Source: an uncultured Phycisphaerales bacterium (lineage in GTDB: Bacteria > Planctomycetota > B15-G4 > CAYZWU01). From it: DNA of 64,000 bases. The stretch spans positions 34,067 to 98,066 of the forward strand of contig CAZIUL010000007.1 of assembly GCA_964542475.1 (NCBI GenBank). The letters are read 5' to 3'. Within the stretch, counting starts at the first letter, position 1; each line of letters starts with the position of its first letter. Positions 44,778 through 62,493 of the stretch are shown in pieces. The position numbers and the translations under genes are program-made. The notes beneath the pieces are model-generated. The model made no database searches and was not told the origin of the DNA. It saw only the letters and a list, made by a program, of their open reading frames with translations.

Positions 44778-46121
44778 CTACGGCAAGAACTCGATCTCGG
44801 CCGCGTTCGACACGTAGTCATAGGGCCCGTACAACAGGAAGGCAAAACGCATTGGAACACCGATCGCATTGGGGGACAGTGGTCCCAGCGTGTTGAACTG
44901 TGCTGTTGCCGACCCTTTCGAGTCAAGGGTTCCCTGGAAATCGATAAAGGCCGGTGTGTTTGCCATCCCAAAGATCAAGGTTGTGACAAAATCCCAGTTC
45001 AGAGGGAAAACCTTGCCGCTCGGAAGAGTAAAACCCGGATCGGTTCCGGTGACGTTTCCAAGAAGAAAGTAGTTCCTGTTCGGGTGGTCCCTGCCCAGAC
45101 CGAGAGAGAAATCTATTGTGCCGCCGGTGGAAACATGGATCCGGTTGTTTTCGAGAGAAAGCGGCCCCACCGCCTCGAAATAGCGCACATAGCCTTCCGG
45201 GCTGTTGTCGAAGTTCCGGTTGCCCACAAGCAGATCCTGCACACCGTCGTTGTTCCAGTCCGCTACATCCAGGCGCGCGTAGTAGACCACGTCGATTATG
45301 CTTCCTCCGGCCTTGAGCTTCATACTTCCGTTGAACAGCGGCGAGACATCAGTGCCTGTGTTTTCCCAGTAGTTCACATTCCCGTTGTAATCGCCGCACA
45401 GGAGGTCCCTCTTGCCGTCCCGGTTCCAGTCAACCATTACCGGGCTTGCTTCGTTCCCGGTGGTAAGAGTGGACACGCCATCCTGCAGCCAGACGGCTCT
45501 GTTGAACACCGGCGTGGAAGTCGGGCTCACGTTAATGAGCAGGTGCACCTTGCCGCCATCTTCTCCCACTAGCAGGTCGACCTTGCCGTCCTTGTTCCAA
45601 TCCACGAAAAAAATGTGGGAATTGAGCCCGCAGTCGTAGTTGACCGCTCCCAGCCTCAGGAAGGTGTATCCGTTGAACTGGGGATCGTCATCCGTGTTTG
45701 TGTTCAGGTAGATGCGAATGGTTCCGTTCCGTTCGCCCACGATAAGATCCTTCTTTCCGTCTCCGTTATAGTCCACGACACGTGGACAAGAACCGAAACA
45801 TCAGGAGTACGATGTGGTAATGGTAACTCCACCGGATTTAAGCTTGACTCCTGCCGGGAACTCTGGATTGAGATCCGTGCCGTTGTTCAGGAAAAGAGTG
45901 ATGTGACCATAACCGAAACACCCGACAAGCAGGTCTTTCGCCCCGTCATTGTTCCAGTCCACAACCTCCGGGGTCGCGTGCCTGTCCACCAGGTAGGGCG
46001 ATCCATTGGCTTCGATGATGACCGCGCTCTTCAGCTCAGGCATCGCTCCATGCGCCGGCCCGGCCATGAAAGCCGACACCAGGAGCACCAGGGGTAAAAC
46101 AAAAAACACCGCTTTTCTCAT
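44778..46121 (-). CDS. Secreted FG-GAP repeat protein with in-frame TGA (candidate Sec107) and C-terminal domain
   Basis: ORFs 45801..46157 and 44778..45776 share a frame and are separated only by TGA (45803-45801) plus 8 sense codons: TITTSYS-*-CFGSCPRVVDYNGDG. RBS GGAGG and signal peptide at 46121; VVDWNNDG-type repeats on both sides of the TGA. Confidence 0.8.
45760..45798 (-). promoter_or_regulatory. Candidate bacterial SECIS element
   Basis: After the UGA: perfect GUCCAC/GUGGAC stem with a GUGUC loop starting at +20; lower stem UUUC-G-GUU / AAC-G-GAGA. Confidence 0.65.
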
Positions 46122-56446: not shown

Positions 56447-57598
56447 TCAGCCCTCATCGGACCCTTTGCTTTCCCCGGAATCCTCCTCGGGTTCGGGCGG
56501 CGCCGGCATGTCGACCTTCACCAGGTCCATGCGCTTTGGATCGTTCGTTCCAAGCCCCCTGGCCGCGGCAGTGGCGATGTGCTTGGCAGGCCTGCCTTTT
56601 TTACCGCCTTCGGCGCGATTTGGCGCCTCTTCGAGCGGCACAAATCCCATATCCTTTCGCGCTTTCACGATCCACTCGTGAACGATCATGTCAACGGCAA
56701 CCGGGTCAGCGGACAGGAGAATCTTCTCGTGTTCGAAAAGATGGTTCATGGACATGAGCTGAGGCCCGCCGTCAGCAACACCGAAAAGACCGTCCAGGAT
56801 GTGCAGCCTGAGCTTGTCGCGCACGCAGGCGATGTTGTTTATATCCGCGATGTGAGGATCGCAGCAGTTCGCGTGGCAGAGCCAGGGGATGTCCACCACC
56901 GCGTGCGAAATGTTCTTGAGCGCGCCGGTTACGCCTGAGCATGCATGGTCTTTCAGCACCGGGATGTTGATGATCGCTGTGAGCTCGTTCGCAACCAGCT
57001 CCGCTACCTTGACCTGGCCCCATGAAAACTTCTGCGGCTCTGTGTCGAAACCCGAAAGAGGCTTCCCGCCCATGTAGTTCTCCTCTCTCAGGGCCGGCGT
57101 GCACCCCTTGAAAACCACATCTTTCTCAGCCAGCTCACCCCTCATTTTCTTCACGTAGTACTTGTGCAGTGTCTCTTCCACCTGGTCCCACACGATGATG
57201 TTCTTCATGGGAACGCCGGCTGCCAGCACACCGTTGTAAACCGTCTCCAGTATGCTCTCCTTGCTGCTGATCAGGCGGCCGCCGCCGCTGTTCAGCTTGA
57301 TGCCGACCACATCATCCGGCTTCACGAAACAACGCCATGCCGACGCTGTATCTTTTTTCCCTGTAAGCGCCAGCATACCGCGCTCAACCATCTTTTTGAC
57401 GCGATCCTCATCCAGCCGCTTTCCGAGCGTCACCGCGCCCGGCGCTGACACCTCGATGACACGGCTTTTCTCCCCTCCGGAAGGACGAGGCTCCTCAGCG
57501 CCCCTGAGAAGCGCTTGCGGGCCGAGCGCCGCTGCAGCGCCGGCTGTTGCGGTTTTTTTGATGAACGATCGCCGATCCATACCTGTTGTCTTTTTCAT
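56447..57598 (-). CDS. Tat-exported DUF362 domain protein
   Basis: DRRSFIK Tat motif; VGIKLN, INIPVLKDH..SGVTGALKN, LHILDGL and DPVAVD motifs. Confidence 0.85.
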   Translation of the reverse strand: MKKTTGMDRRSFIKKTATAGAAAALGPQALLRGAEEPRPSGGEKSRVIEVSAPGAVTLGKRLDEDRVKKMVERGMLALTGKKDTASAWRCFVKPDDVVGIKLNSGGGRLISSKESILETVYNGVLAAGVPMKNIIVWDQVEETLHKYYVKKMRGELAEKDVVFKGCTPALREENYMGGKPLSGFDTEPQKFSWGQVKVAELVANELTAIINIPVLKDHACSGVTGALKNISHAVVDIPWLCHANCCDPHIADINNIACVRDKLRLHILDGLFGVADGGPQLMSMNHLFEHEKILLSADPVAVDMIVHEWIVKARKDMGFVPLEEAPNRAEGGKKGRPAKHIATAAARGLGTNDPKRMDLVKVDMPAPPEPEEDSGESKGSDEG

Positions 57599-57720
57599 GT
57601 TCAAGGTCCTTAATCAACAAAACGAGTATGGGTGCCGGTCAACAACCTACCATAATTCGGGGGAGCCTTACGCAATTAGGGCGTTGGAATCGACTCCATC
57701 AACAATCAAGTCCCCCGAGT

Positions 57721-59280
57721 TTACTCCACTTCGAAAGTACAGAGGTTGGTCAGTTTATAACCGATCATCGCCTGGAAGTAAACTGTGTAGGGGCCGGGAG
57801 GAGCAGGCGGCACCGTACCCGGGTGCACGAGCACACCGCAGGAAGGGATCGAAGGAAGAGGAGGCAAAACGGCAAAAGGGAAGCTGATGTACCAGTCGCC
57901 GTACGCGCTCGGCAGGGGAGGATCATAAACGCTGAACCCGGCCACCAACCCTACCTGAGCGGTCAGGGGATCGCCGACGAATTTAAGCTCCACGCACTGG
58001 CCGGGGGAGGGATCGCCGGTGAAATAAAGATGCCTGTGAAATTCATCCGCCCCGATATCCGGTCCGGCTCCGAATGTACGCTCATCGTACTCGAAGTCGG
58101 TTTCCGGAAGCCCGGGGGCCAGGCTGTCCCCGGCATCTCTCAAAGGCGAGTGATGGAAGATGTGGAAATCGTTGCCCTCCGCATCGACAAAACATGGGTC
58201 ATCATCGATGTTGCCCGTTCCGGGGCAGCCGCCCTCCACGTCGCAGAACGAAACCAGAGGTGTACTGTTCATTGCCAACAACTGCTTGGGAACGTTTCCA
58301 TAGACGATGCAGTTCGTGATGCTGGGCGAGCTGTTATAGCAAGCAATGCCGTACGCCGAGTTTCCAAAGATGGTGTTGTTCGTGATCCTCATCGCCGAGG
58401 ACGTGGACATACACTTGATGCCGCCGCTCTTGTTGCCGTAGATGATGTTGTTGACGAAATCACCTTCTCCCATGAAGCTCTGGATGCCAACGGAAGCGTT
58501 GTCGTGGATGACGTTGCCGCGAACAGATGAATTCCCGTTACAAAAATAGAAGGCGCCGTAAAAGCCTAAGTTGGCAATAACCAGGTTGTTCTCCACAACC
58601 GGAAAGGAGTCTAAACACTCTATAGCGCCGGAGTGCCATGCGCCGTTGTTCTCCACAAAAACGTTGTAGGTTATGACAGGCCATGAGTCGACGCAATGCA
58701 TACCGGCTCCGCCGCACTTGCAATAGTTTCCCGAGATAATGTTTCCCTGGACCAGGGGTGAGGAGTCGGAGGAGTAAACCCCGCCGCCCTCGGCGCTTCA
58801 GTCCCAGGGCGGGCCGTTCTCAACGATCAGGTTGTCCTTTATCGATGGCGAGGATCCGTCCTTGCAGCAGATCCCGCTCCCGCGCGGGGACATGTTCTGA
58901 GTGATCACGTTGTTCGTGATCAAGGGCGCTGAACCGCCGCAAAAAATCCCGCCGCCCAGAGGAGACTTCCCGTTGCAAATGGTGAAGCGCTCAAGAACCG
59001 ATCCTTCCCCCTCCCCGCTTTCAAACGTCACAACACTGCCCGCCTCCAGGCCGTCGATGATCGACAACTGTGGGCCGTCCTCGCTGGTAAGTGTAATGGC
59101 CTTACCATTGAAATCGATGTTTTCCGCGTACGTTCCGGCAGCGACAAGAACCACATCACCGTCCGATGCCGCGTCGATGGCCCCCTGTATCGTGGGATAA
59201 TCCAGGGGCACATGAACAGTGGCTGCAAACGCGGCAGCCGTATGATACAGAACGATGCCGATGATGATTGTCTTTCTCAT
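57721..59280 (-). CDS. Secreted right-handed parallel beta-helix protein with in-frame TGA (candidate Sec161) and C-terminal domain
   Basis: ORFs 58798..59310 and 57721..58701 share a frame and are separated only by TGA (58800-58798) plus 32 sense codons that continue the repeat: NGPPWD-*-SAEGGGVYSSDSSPLVQGNIISGN. VPLDYPTIQGAID N-cap; RBS GGAGG and signal peptide at 59280. Confidence 0.8.
58760..58791 (-). promoter_or_regulatory. Candidate bacterial SECIS element
   Basis: After the UGA, +7 to +38 folds as GAGGG/CUCCUC-side, CGG/CCG and GGGG/CUCC stems, with G-U at the apex (+19/+20). Confidence 0.5.
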
Positions 59281-59414
59281 GCGATCCTCCGCAAAACACG
59301 CCGAGAACAACTACCAACAGGCTATCTGTCTATCCATGAGGGTTATAATAACCGAATATGCTTGTTTGTCGAGGATTTTCGCGCATGGACGGCCTCCGGC
59401 CTCAAGCCCGCTTA

Positions 59415-60953
59415 TTACATATACCCCAGCTCCATGAGCTGTTCGATCTCCTCGGCTGAAGGCTCTCCCGCCTCTCCTTTTTTGTTCAGGTCGAGAGTCC
59501 GCCCGCGTAAAAAAGCATCAAGAGATTTCTTCAGGCCGAGAGCCGGACCGCCGGCCTTTTCCGGATCAAGAGGGTGCTTTTCCCCGGGATCTTTCAGCAG
59601 ATCAAAAAAGCTCCACACCACCCCGCTGTCCCGTGACTCGCTCCGAATCAGCTTGTTTGTTCCGGACATGACAGCCGCGTGGTCGCCGTTCTCCAGGACC
59701 GTCTCGGAAAAAACCGGCCCACCTGCCGGGAGTTCAGCTCCCCCGCTCTTCAAAACGGGCCATAGCGAAACCCCGTCCAGGCCATCCGGTACCTGTATCC
59801 CCACAAGATCCAGAACGGTCGGATAGAGATCCACGAGGCTTACATGCTCAGAGGTCTCGCCTGTAAACGCCCCCCCTTCTTGCCGGGGCACGTGAAAAAT
59901 GAGCGGCACGCCGGTTTCTTCCTCAAACACGGAATGGCCGTGACCCCATTCGTTGTGTTCAAGAAAGGCCTCGCCGTGATCTGATGTCACCACAACCACC
60001 GTTTCATCCAGCAGTCCCTCCTCCTCGAGCACCGACAAAAATATCTTGAACGCGTTGTCGGTGTATGCCACCTCGGCATCGTAAAGCGAGATCAGGTACC
60101 TGATGCGCTTCATCAGCTCGGGATCGTCCGGCCCCTCGAAGTCCAGCCCGCCCTCGGGAAGCTCTCCAACGGACAGCTTGGGCGCCTTCCTGGCTATCAT
60201 ATCCTTCATCCAATCCTGGTCGTAATCGAAACGGAACGGTTCCCGCCCTCCGCTCGACTGCCATTTCCGGTACTGCTCCAGCCATAGCAGGATCTCCATC
60301 GGCTCCCCCCTTCTCGTGAAAGGGGCTGTGGGCCCCGGGTCGCCCGCGGCATAGTTTCGCCTGAACGCCTGCGGCGGGAAATAAGGCGAATGAGGGTCTA
60401 CAACATGAAGGTACAGGAAAAAACCACAGTCCTTGCGGCGCTGCTTCACCCACTCGATTGCTCCGTTGAACAGCTTGCACGCGGGACCGGCCGGCCACAC
60501 GAACTCGTCGAACCCCTGGTCAAAGTTGTAGTTCGGGATTATGTGGGGGTTCGTGACAAAAGCCGCGGTCCTGTACCCTTCTCCCTTGAAAAGCTCTGCC
60601 AGTGTATCGAACTCCTTGTCGAGATGGGTCATGTTTTTCAAGAACATCAACGATCCCACAGCGCCGTGCCTGCCCGGGTACAGCCCTGTCATCAAGGAAG
60701 CAACCGATGGCTTTGTCCATGTCGACGGCGCATGAGCGCGGCGAAAACAGAACCCATCCCCGGCGAATGCGTCGAGGGTGCGGCTCAGGCGCTTCTTGGC
60801 CCCGTACGCGCTGAGGCGGTCGCTCCGAAGGGTGTCGATGACCACAAAAACCACGTTGGCGCCTTCAGGCCGCGCATCCGGCCCACAGGCGGGAAAAAGC
60901 AGCGCTGCCAGCGCAAGAACGGCTGAAACAATCCGTTTTTCGGGGGTGGCCAT
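59415..60953 (-). CDS. Sulfatase-like hydrolase/transferase lipoprotein
   Basis: IDTLRSDR, STWTKPSVASLMTG, DPH and SDHGEAF motifs; C-terminal IEQLMELGY; lipobox-like FPAC. Confidence 0.88.
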   Translation of the reverse strand: MATPEKRIVSAVLALAALLFPACGPDARPEGANVVFVVIDTLRSDRLSAYGAKKRLSRTLDAFAGDGFCFRRAHAPSTWTKPSVASLMTGLYPGRHGAVGSLMFLKNMTHLDKEFDTLAELFKGEGYRTAAFVTNPHIIPNYNFDQGFDEFVWPAGPACKLFNGAIEWVKQRRKDCGFFLYLHVVDPHSPYFPPQAFRRNYAAGDPGPTAPFTRRGEPMEILLWLEQYRKWQSSGGREPFRFDYDQDWMKDMIARKAPKLSVGELPEGGLDFEGPDDPELMKRIRYLISLYDAEVAYTDNAFKIFLSVLEEEGLLDETVVVVTSDHGEAFLEHNEWGHGHSVFEEETGVPLIFHVPRQEGGAFTGETSEHVSLVDLYPTVLDLVGIQVPDGLDGVSLWPVLKSGGAELPAGGPVFSETVLENGDHAAVMSGTNKLIRSESRDSGVVWSFFDLLKDPGEKHPLDPEKAGGPALGLKKSLDAFLRGRTLDLNKKGEAGEPSAEEIEQLMELGYM

Positions 60954-60954
60954 T

Positions 60955-62493
60955 TTACAGGTAACCAAGTTTTCTAAGCTGTTCGATCTCCTCAGCGGAA
61001 GGCATGCCCATCTCCCCCTCCTTGTTGAAATCCAGTCGCCGGCCCCGGAAAAACCTCTCCAGGCGCTTCTTGAGCGCTATTCCGTCTTGTCCGGCATCGG
61101 ATAGGCGCATGGGCTCCTGCTCCTCCGGGTCTCTCTCAAGGTCGTAATACATCCACTTCACTCCCCCGTCGTTTCGCACCCAGCGCATGAGCTTCCTTCT
61201 CCCAAGCACAACGCTCGCGTGGTCCCCTGTGTCGAGAAACGATTCGGTAAAAACCGGACGCGCCCTCAATGCGGCTGTGTCCGCGCCATTTATGGCGGGC
61301 CACAGCGACACGCCGTCAAGGCCCGGGGTCTCGGGCAGATCCAGCATCTCCATCAGGGTTGGAAAGATATCGATGAGGCTGACCTGCTCGCTGATCACGC
61401 CTTTGAACGGGTCGCCTTCCGGACCCGGCACCCTGAATATAAGGGGCACGTCGATCTCCTCCCTGTGAACGGTCAAGCGGTGTCCCCAGAAATCGTGCTC
61501 CATGAAGCATTCGCCGTGATCCGAGGTCACGACCAGAACGCTCTCATCCAGAACTCCTTCGTCGCGCAGGTTCTCCACGAAACCATCAAGCGCGGTGTCC
61601 GAAAAAGCCACCTCGCCGTCGTAAAGCGCTGTGAGGTGATCGATCCTTTTCAAAAGCCTCGGATCGTCACGCCCCTTGAAATCGAGGAAGATTCTCGATT
61701 TGATGTCGTCCAGCGCCTGTCCGGGCGCGATCTGCTCGAGCCACTTGTTGACCTGTTCGGGCTCGAAAACATATTCGAAACCGCTGCCGTCCTCCGCTCC
61801 CCGATCGATGTACTGGTCCAGCCACAGAGTTATCTCCTCGAAGCGGCCGAGCCGGGTGAAAGGCGCCTTTGGAAGAGGCTTGCCTGGCGCGAACCTTTTC
61901 CTGTACACGGGCGGCGGAAAGTAAGGCGCGTGCGGATCTATCAGGTGAAGATAAAGGAAAAACTTCCTGCCATCATCCTGCTGCTTCTTTACCCATTCCG
62001 CGGCGCGTCCGAGCAGCTCATCAGCGAGCCCGGCAGGCTGCGTGAACTCGTCGAACCCCTGGTCGAAATGGTAGAACGGGATGATGTTAGCGTTGGTCAC
62101 GAACGCGGCGGTCTTGTACCCGGCTGTTTTGAAGCGCTCGGCCATGGTTGTGAAACGTTCCTCCAGAAACGCGAGATTCTGGTGGATCGTAAGATCACCG
62201 ATGGCGCCGTGGCAGCCGGGATAAAGCCCTGTGAGGAGCGATGCTACAGACGGCTTGGTCCAGGATGATGGAGCCACCGCGCCCTTGAAAAGCACTCCCT
62301 CCCTTGCGAGGCGGTCCATGCACGGGGTTGACCCCGCCCCATGACCGTTTATGCCAAGCCGGTCGTTTCGAAGCGTGTCCACAAGCACGATGATCACGTT
62401 CGTGTCCGGGGGCAGGCTCTTCCTGCCGCACGCGAACAACGCGGCCAGAACAACCGGCAGCAGAACGCCATAAGAAATAAAATGCTTGGCCAT
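60955..62493 (-). CDS. Sulfatase-like hydrolase/transferase lipoprotein (paralog of the adjacent gene)
   Basis: VDTLRNDR, SSWTKPSVASLLTG, DPH and SDHGECF motifs; C-terminal IEQLRKLGY; lipobox-like LFAC. Confidence 0.88.
   Translation of the reverse strand: MAKHFISYGVLLPVVLAALFACGRKSLPPDTNVIIVLVDTLRNDRLGINGHGAGSTPCMDRLAREGVLFKGAVAPSSWTKPSVASLLTGLYPGCHGAIGDLTIHQNLAFLEERFTTMAERFKTAGYKTAAFVTNANIIPFYHFDQGFDEFTQPAGLADELLGRAAEWVKKQQDDGRKFFLYLHLIDPHAPYFPPPVYRKRFAPGKPLPKAPFTRLGRFEEITLWLDQYIDRGAEDGSGFEYVFEPEQVNKWLEQIAPGQALDDIKSRIFLDFKGRDDPRLLKRIDHLTALYDGEVAFSDTALDGFVENLRDEGVLDESVLVVTSDHGECFMEHDFWGHRLTVHREEIDVPLIFRVPGPEGDPFKGVISEQVSLIDIFPTLMEMLDLPETPGLDGVSLWPAINGADTAALRARPVFTESFLDTGDHASVVLGRRKLMRWVRNDGGVKWMYYDLERDPEEQEPMRLSDAGQDGIALKKRLERFFRGRRLDFNKEGEMGMPSAEEIEQLRKLGYL

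Follow-up and report, generated by a model that had tools for sequence, protein, structure and literature searches.

Bacterial selenoprotein genes of the Escherichia coli fdhF type, which are decoded through SelB and a SECIS element, carry an in-frame UGA followed immediately by a hairpin within the coding region, whose apical loop lies about 20–26 nt away with a G-U at the loop. Genomes with selenoproteins of the SelB/SECIS kind encode tRNA-Sec, SelA, SelB and SelD. To our knowledge, nearly all bacterial selenoproteins described so far are oxidoreductases that have homologs with Cys, and the methods used to search for them require such homologs.

Here we describe a beta-helix gene with an in-frame TGA, located in a window of 64,000 nucleotides (the whole stretch of DNA that was analyzed) from an uncultured Phycisphaerales bacterium. 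Like the fdhF-type genes, it combines an in-frame UGA with an immediate candidate hairpin in the coding region, an apical loop at a similar distance and a G-U step at the loop, the G of which is paired in the minimum-energy fold, and its genome encodes all four of the components listed above. Unlike SelB/SECIS genes, it has neither a homolog column with Cys or selenocysteine nor a redox motif beside the UGA codon, and its hairpin is irregular and stands as a candidate. The product would also differ from the fdhF type in being a repeat protein secreted through the Sec pathway rather than a cytoplasmic or cofactor-bearing oxidoreductase. While the SelB/SECIS mechanism is known, the beta-helix and FG-GAP scaffolds and the extracellular setting are new: full-text literature searches returned no paper that connects selenocysteine to proteins of the parallel beta-helix or FG-GAP kind, and NCBIfam holds no selenoprotein model for this gene or for the two related groups of proteins described below (CU beta-helix and FG-GAP-like).

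A beta-helix gene with an in-frame TGA

On the minus strand, a joined frame of 519 codons runs from an ATG at 59280 to a TAA at 57723–57721 (read-through coding sequence, 57721–59280), with a single break, the TGA of codon 161 at 58800–58798. The ORFs at 59310–58798 and 58701–57721 share this frame and are separated by the TGA and 32 sense codons (58702–58797, minus strand), which lead up to the ATG of the 326-aa ORF as called and along which the coil repeat carries on (...LIVENGPPWD-U-SAEGGGVYSSDSSPLVQGNIISGNYCKCGG..., the segment after U161 beginning SAEGGGVYSS). Translation bears out an earlier note on this DNA in placing the two ORFs in one frame and in reading the 32 intervening codons as further repeat; the note had also proposed a 519-aa product with selenocysteine at position 161. 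In all assemblies, public annotation instead gives a 160/170-aa ORF and a 326-aa ORF, the latter beginning 32 codons past the TGA. A putative signal peptide, MRKTIIIGIVLYHTAAAFAA (59221–59280, minus strand), was recognized by eye in the translation, with likely cleavage between AFA and the A that follows; its residues 2–17 form an N-terminal helix in the AlphaFold2 model, and the same N-terminus occurs in homologs.

Six metagenome contigs (shown of 16 on record, from different JGI and ENA samples) had the same sequence throughout 1750 nt that span the TGA (100% identity). Because these six independent assemblies agree, the TGA is, as far as assemblies can tell, not a sequencing or assembly error, a possibility that the earlier note had wanted checked. 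Neither the beta-helix gene nor its neighbors differed among contigs, indicating a clonal population. The 358 codons 3′ of the TGA are open, with no second lesion, and retain all 33 family-invariant residues of a 15-sequence alignment; given a clonal population and no ortholog, the intactness of this 3′ half is weakly informative. Flanked in the window by 56447–57604 and 59415–60968 (minus strand), the gene lies between sulfatase genes (one occupying 59415–60968, with another located still further upstream in the contigs) and a pair of DUF362 genes, after which comes a GFO/IDH/MocA oxidoreductase, in an order that is identical in all metagenome contigs. This neighborhood may be polysaccharide-utilization-like.

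The read-through protein matched the Pfam families Beta_helix (PF13229; E = 5.6e-23, 81.7 bits against a cut-off of 25.9) and NosD (PF05048; E = 8.9e-13, 48.6 bits against a cut-off of 23.6), and AlphaFold2 modeled it (pLDDT 95.6, pTM 0.91) as a long, three-sided beta-helix of repeating three-strand coils that continue unbroken across the TGA. Named homologs are annotated as 'right-handed parallel beta-helix repeat-containing protein [Planctomycetota bacterium]'. In Foldseek searches with the read-through model, beta-helix structures came out on top, including pectate lyase Pel9A, PL6 alginate lyases and tailspikes, with a likeness that is generic (TM 0.26–0.46 and 11–15% identity overall; TM 0.37–0.46 for PL6/PL9). 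Unlike our candidate, PL6/PL9 lyases and phage tailspikes are devoid of selenocysteine. Profiles above cut-off, the modeled fold and the top structure matches all place the gene among right-handed parallel beta-helix repeat proteins, and its product is predicted to be a secreted protein of this fold with a C-terminal beta-sandwich-like domain.

According to the secondary structure of the model, U161 lies in loop 154–167, and C187 and C189 (C187-K188-C189, codons at 58714–58722, minus strand) lie in loop 184–193, two loops that are predicted to be the same turn of successive coils. The model thereby agrees with the earlier claim that the UGA falls in the loop of one coil and CKC in the matching loop of the next. 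The TGA-bearing turn, found in the third coil, is enlarged to 9 residues compared with the usual 4–5, and the equivalent turn of the next coil reads N-Y-C-K-C-G-G. Turns with at least two Cys are rare in these proteins, accounting for 5 of 976 turns in homologs (0.5%) and for none of the 101 in the genome's own paralogs.

Homologs align unbroken across the TGA, leaving a single in-frame UGA within a homology-supported frame. No ortholog above 50% identity was found anywhere that we searched, the nearest relatives being a paralog on contig C67 of the same genome (G000) at 50% and metagenome proteins at 45% or less. None of the homologs or of the genome's paralogs has a TGA at this column, and an order-wide search revealed no further TGA-bearing relatives of the gene. 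Among 119 homologs, 9 had a Cys in the TGA-equivalent loop, matching the 7.9% background for such loops in general, and one paralog only (on contig C66) aligns a Cys to the TGA column, in a loop whose alignment is ambiguous. The search for TGA or Cys at this column, proposed in the earlier note, thus went against it: with Cys at background, the site is unsupported by the classical criterion of Sec/Cys pairs. Two other candidates were set aside, as P0011, the highest-identity partial match, proved to be a shorter intact paralog rather than a TGA-split ortholog, and an apparent in-frame stop from tblastn (C18) was that gene's natural TAG end.

Overall, the gene has more than 20 beta-helix paralogs in its genome (28 in the estimate of nonsense rates). 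In a related genome, one beta-helix paralog (L030:1501–3042, corresponding to G004 C54:1527–3068) contains an in-frame TAA (GGGIVCRY-stop-SSPII) and is otherwise intact; it has either become a nonsense pseudogene recently or been misassembled. The base rate derived from this TAA is approximately 1 nonsense per 130 family genes, which, combined with a mutation model, translates into about 0.3 nonsense events of the TGA type for every ~130 genes of the family and about 0.06 among the 28 paralogs of the genome.

Selenocysteine machinery and other in-frame TGAs

The genome encodes a tRNA-Sec (anticodon tca, 77 bits), SelA (439 bits), two SelB genes (G000 C27:51898–52029 and C3:140419–140544) and two SelD genes (C10:67507–68433 and C3:142991–143914), one of which has a TGA of its own at the classical selenocysteine site AG-U-ASK. 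A lack of selenocysteine machinery, an objection foreseen in the earlier note, is thus not the case here. On contig C3, one SelB, SelA and one SelD lie together, and the duplicated SelB occurs alongside many unusual secreted selenocysteine genes. TGA also serves more often than the other stops as an ordinary terminator, closing 55% of long ORFs (genome GC, 55.5%), and we rejected an alternative genetic code (table 4 or 25) on this evidence.

We scanned the genome for stops flanked on either side by 40 or more open codons, searched the resulting 81-aa peptides with BLAST against all ORFs of the genome, and kept cases in which a paralog alignment spanned the stop and the frame was the best coding one both before and after it. 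Before the coding-frame filter, the scans were dominated by wrong-frame and adjacent-gene artifacts. In the true coding frame, paralog-supported in-frame stops comprised 9 TGA, 0 TAA and 0 TAG (13, 0 and 1 at looser cut-offs), compared to a codon-usage prediction that only 21–25% of nonsense mutations yield TGA. This excess indicates that in-frame TGAs in this genome, as a class, are recoding sites. The supported genes include those for two HdrA-like, four FG-GAP-like, two unknown and two beta-helix proteins, the last two being the gene described above and the one on C66.

The two HdrA-like FAD/FeS proteins (G000 C51:17511, plus strand; C106:2377, minus strand) have their TGA at DC(S/P)I-U-IL.PK, the known C-x-x-U site, and provided positive controls. 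In-frame TGAs are also present in two genes with no Pfam match: C16:12526 (minus strand; FKFG-U-GGTC), which has a paralog with Cys, and C15:71991 (plus strand; GTYC-U-GMTD), which encodes a signal-peptide protein. Each is followed by a downstream hairpin, and both products are candidates for further selenoproteins. Separately, a short segment is repeated at dozens of loci in G000 (for example, C30:8380–8739, C54:11669–11956, C38:7981–8250 and C2:150941–151258), with 70–95% identity in translated comparisons in a non-coding frame, and is either an element present in many copies or the conserved end of a gene.

The beta-helix gene on C66 (C66:2624–4111, or L040:1501–2988; TGA at C66:3008) reads ILNGSTSTSC-U-GIPHGGGVRC and defines what we call the CU beta-helix subfamily. 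Orthologs L041, L042, L043 and L047, from genomes G002, G003 and G004 and two further genera, share 47–57% identity. The TGA occupies the same column in 5 of 5 orthologs, spanning four genomes and three genera, and each has exactly one, whereas ~78 other paralog matches have none. Cys always precedes the TGA within the motif (S/D)C-U-G-x3-GGGVRC, and another Cys is conserved in the next coil's turn; in some homologs, such as P0034 (QYCCGGG), the first turn carries Cys-Cys. The Gly-Gly-Gly-Val-Arg-Cys codons form a conserved hairpin, GGCGGCG-GAGUA-CGCUGCC, whose loop spans nt 23–27 counted from the U of the UGA. This is a well-supported, seemingly uncatalogued selenoprotein subfamily on a beta-helix scaffold, predicted to be secreted.

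A third group is represented within the window itself by an FG-GAP-like secreted protein (44778–46121, minus strand; TGA at 45803–45801) with a G-U-C site and TGA-containing paralogs at G000 C36:30994, C77:12006 and C80:9887. These genes have the conserved hairpin (G)UCCACG-(A/U)GU-CGUGGA(C), with its loop at nt 24–26, and all 32 of 32 relatives, from five genomes of the bacterial family, contain exactly one TGA. Among the three secreted cases, the beta-helix singleton is the weakest and the CU beta-helix subfamily is the strongest new item.

The singleton belongs to the same superfamily as the CU genes and resembles the CU subfamily in its overall architecture (signal peptide, beta-helix and C-terminal domain), in the Cys on the next coil's turn, in the position of its TGA within an xNG-loop-GGGVxx turn, 4–5 codons before the GGG, and in the Gly codons that make up the 5′ arm of its hairpin. 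Its identity to the CU genes is ~35%. Their TGA is next to a Cys and belongs to the first coil, whereas that of the singleton is in the third coil and has no Cys beside it, and the singleton has no ortholog. It falls outside the subfamily, as its own first-coil turn, NGKSPLGGGIFC, has no TGA and its hairpin did not match the model of the CU hairpin. The earlier idea of a selenocysteine in a beta-helix loop near Cys has found an independent, conserved precedent in the CU subfamily of the same bacterial family, but not a TGA/Cys column for the gene on which it was founded.

A candidate SECIS downstream of the UGA

The candidate bacterial SECIS is a stem-loop of −15.0 kcal/mol at 58760–58791 (minus strand), corresponding to nt 10–41 from the U of the UGA. 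It contains 12 pairs and an apical UUUA loop, U23–A26 (nt 23–26), closed by the pair G22–C27; its 5′ arm consists of the Gly codons GGC GGC GGG and its 3′ arm of Tyr-Ser-Ser-Asp-Ser codons. The stem, with four pairs at the top, one mismatch and two bulges, is irregular, and the G of the G-U is paired in the minimum-energy fold. A hairpin with a G-U after the UGA had been noticed before, and it exists, with the bases then numbered +19/+20 corresponding to G22/U23.

Compared with dinucleotide shuffles of a 69-nt window, the candidate was not unusual (z = −0.57), a null that is uninformative in a GC-rich repeat and that we replaced with synonymous-codon shuffles and paralog positions. By these measures, the hairpin was stabler than 96.6% of recodings (p = 0.034), 98.7% of all codon positions in 18 paralogs (p = 0.013) and 95.7% of positions in the same register before the GGG motif (p = 0.043), and it ranked 17 of 506 within its own gene. 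The candidate is thus moderately unusual, in the top 1.3–5% of controls, and the genome's well-supported SECIS controls score no better in the same nulls. Its loop at nt 23–26 falls within the range of 20–34 seen for confident SECIS elements of the genome (SelD, 20–24; FG-GAP, 24–26; CU beta-helix, 23–27; C16, 24–28; HdrA, 31–34). Because some hairpin occupies this place in 21% of the corresponding GGG registers of paralogs, the candidate's evidential weight is only ~3- to 6-fold.

Rfam SECIS families gave no match to the gene at gathering thresholds or at E ≤ 10, and a covariance model built from the CU-subfamily hairpin gave no match at 58760–58800. Among local folds of the gene, the stablest is a competing hairpin at 58780–58818 (minus strand; −20.7 kcal/mol), in which CCCGCCC (codons 156–158) pairs with GGGCGG (codons 164–166) and the UGA lies in the loop. 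In the absence of a ribosome, this fold competes with the candidate SECIS; a ribosome positioned on the UGA would have melted it.

Selenocysteine and its rivals

We propose that SelB and tRNA-Sec of the organism would decode the UGA of codon 161 as selenocysteine, aided by the hairpin of Gly-Gly-Gly-Val-Tyr-Ser-Ser codons just downstream, which SelB presumably accepts. The product would be a single 519-aa secreted beta-helix protein, with U161 in an enlarged turn ahead of the GGG strand and beside the rare Cys-x-Cys turn of the following coil. With U161 presumably in contact with C187/C189, the three chalcogens (Se, S and S) would form a surface site for redox chemistry or soft-metal binding, a putative function suggested only by the composition of the site and by comparison with selenoproteins that have CU or UxxU sites.

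Selenocysteine is favored by the identity of the stop as TGA in a genome that recodes TGA as a class, by a hairpin whose loop at nt 23–26 lies in the SECIS range, by the rare CKC loop (0.5%) on the next coil, and by an intact 3′ part with a confident, continuous AlphaFold model. In addition, the U...CxC arrangement of the gene mirrors the conserved CU...C of the CU subfamily. The proposal is weakened by the missing ortholog, which leaves TGA conservation without support; moreover, every well-supported case in the genome has its selenocysteine in a CU, UC or CxxU motif, and U161 does not. Background-level Cys in the loop, the irregular stem with its paired G, the stronger competing fold and the lack of a match to Rfam families or to the CU-hairpin covariance model also count against it.

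The most serious rival, which we consider less likely, sees in the gene a young nonsense pseudogene: one recent point mutation (to TGA from TGG, TGC, GGA or CGA, for example) would have been fixed in the clonal population, leaving a 160-aa fragment or nothing useful, and the hairpin and CKC would be coincidental. Consistent with this explanation, neither a TGA nor a Cys column is conserved for the gene, which is a singleton, its loss would be tolerable given more than 20 redundant paralogs, and a relative's otherwise intact paralog with an in-frame TAA indicates that nonsense mutations occur in the family. However, ~78% of nonsense mutations are expected to be TAG or TAA while the stop here is TGA, and nearly all other supported in-frame TGAs in the genome are conserved selenocysteine sites, with TAA and TAG ones essentially absent. 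A chance hairpin would agree with the ~21% of paralog GGG registers that have one at the same place and with the negative CU-hairpin covariance model, but less well with a rank in the top 1.3–5% of nulls. A random mutation would have a ~4% chance of landing in the turn adjoining the gene's single rare CxC loop (~20 codons). The downstream sequence carries no second lesion in 358 codons, although an intact 3′ half says little in a clonal population. A random TGA nonsense mutation would need three coincidences, namely proximity to CxC (~4%), a top-5% hairpin at the right distance and a stop that is TGA. A newly evolved selenocysteine site has a low prior, yet it explains all three, and we put the probability that codon 161 is read as selenocysteine at roughly 0.6. 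This decoding is probable, not provable.

The remaining readings are improbable even when taken together. In one, the UGA is a true and useful stop that yields a short secreted 160-aa product, or is read through by a near-cognate tRNA (Trp/Cys), so that a little full-length protein is made. UGA is the leakiest stop codon, and gene callers give the 160-aa and 326-aa ORFs in all assemblies; however, the 160-aa piece would end in the middle of a continuous modeled beta-helix, the 326-aa ORF has no signal peptide and begins inside a coil, and no family member has such a split architecture. For read-through by other tRNAs, the selenocysteine machinery offers a simpler route, and we give this pair of explanations little credence. 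A sequencing or assembly error, or an alternative code in which TGA is Trp or Gly, has the bare in-frame TGA alone in its favor and can be dismissed in light of six identical independent contigs and of TGA ending 55% of long ORFs.

If codon 161 does specify selenocysteine, its likely origin is a Cys codon in the loop that changed to TGA in a selenocysteine-proficient cell, where the GGG...SS codon motif would have supplied a ready-made hairpin at the turn, as found in 21% of paralog registers. More tentatively, U161, as a recently evolved selenocysteine, may form an extracellular Se/S/S redox or soft-metal site with C187/C189. This uncultured family of marine planctomycetes would then have three or more kinds of selenoprotein among its secreted repeat proteins, this one alongside the FG-GAP-like U-C and CU beta-helix proteins. 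As part of the same tentative reading, GGG...SS repeats may act as proto-SECIS elements that let selenocysteine arise repeatedly upstream of them.

If true, selenocysteine would occur in a surface turn of a secreted beta-helix that has no Cys form, where it is invisible to homolog-based methods, and would have been recruited to extracellular structural or adhesin-like scaffolds. The proto-SECIS idea, in which repeat codon motifs pre-form a hairpin, would provide a testable route to new selenocysteine sites. Apart from the singleton, conserved UGA codons occur in this bacterial family both in the CU beta-helix subfamily and in the FG-GAP-like proteins, a large family, and public annotation splits all such TGA genes into two 'hypothetical' ORFs.
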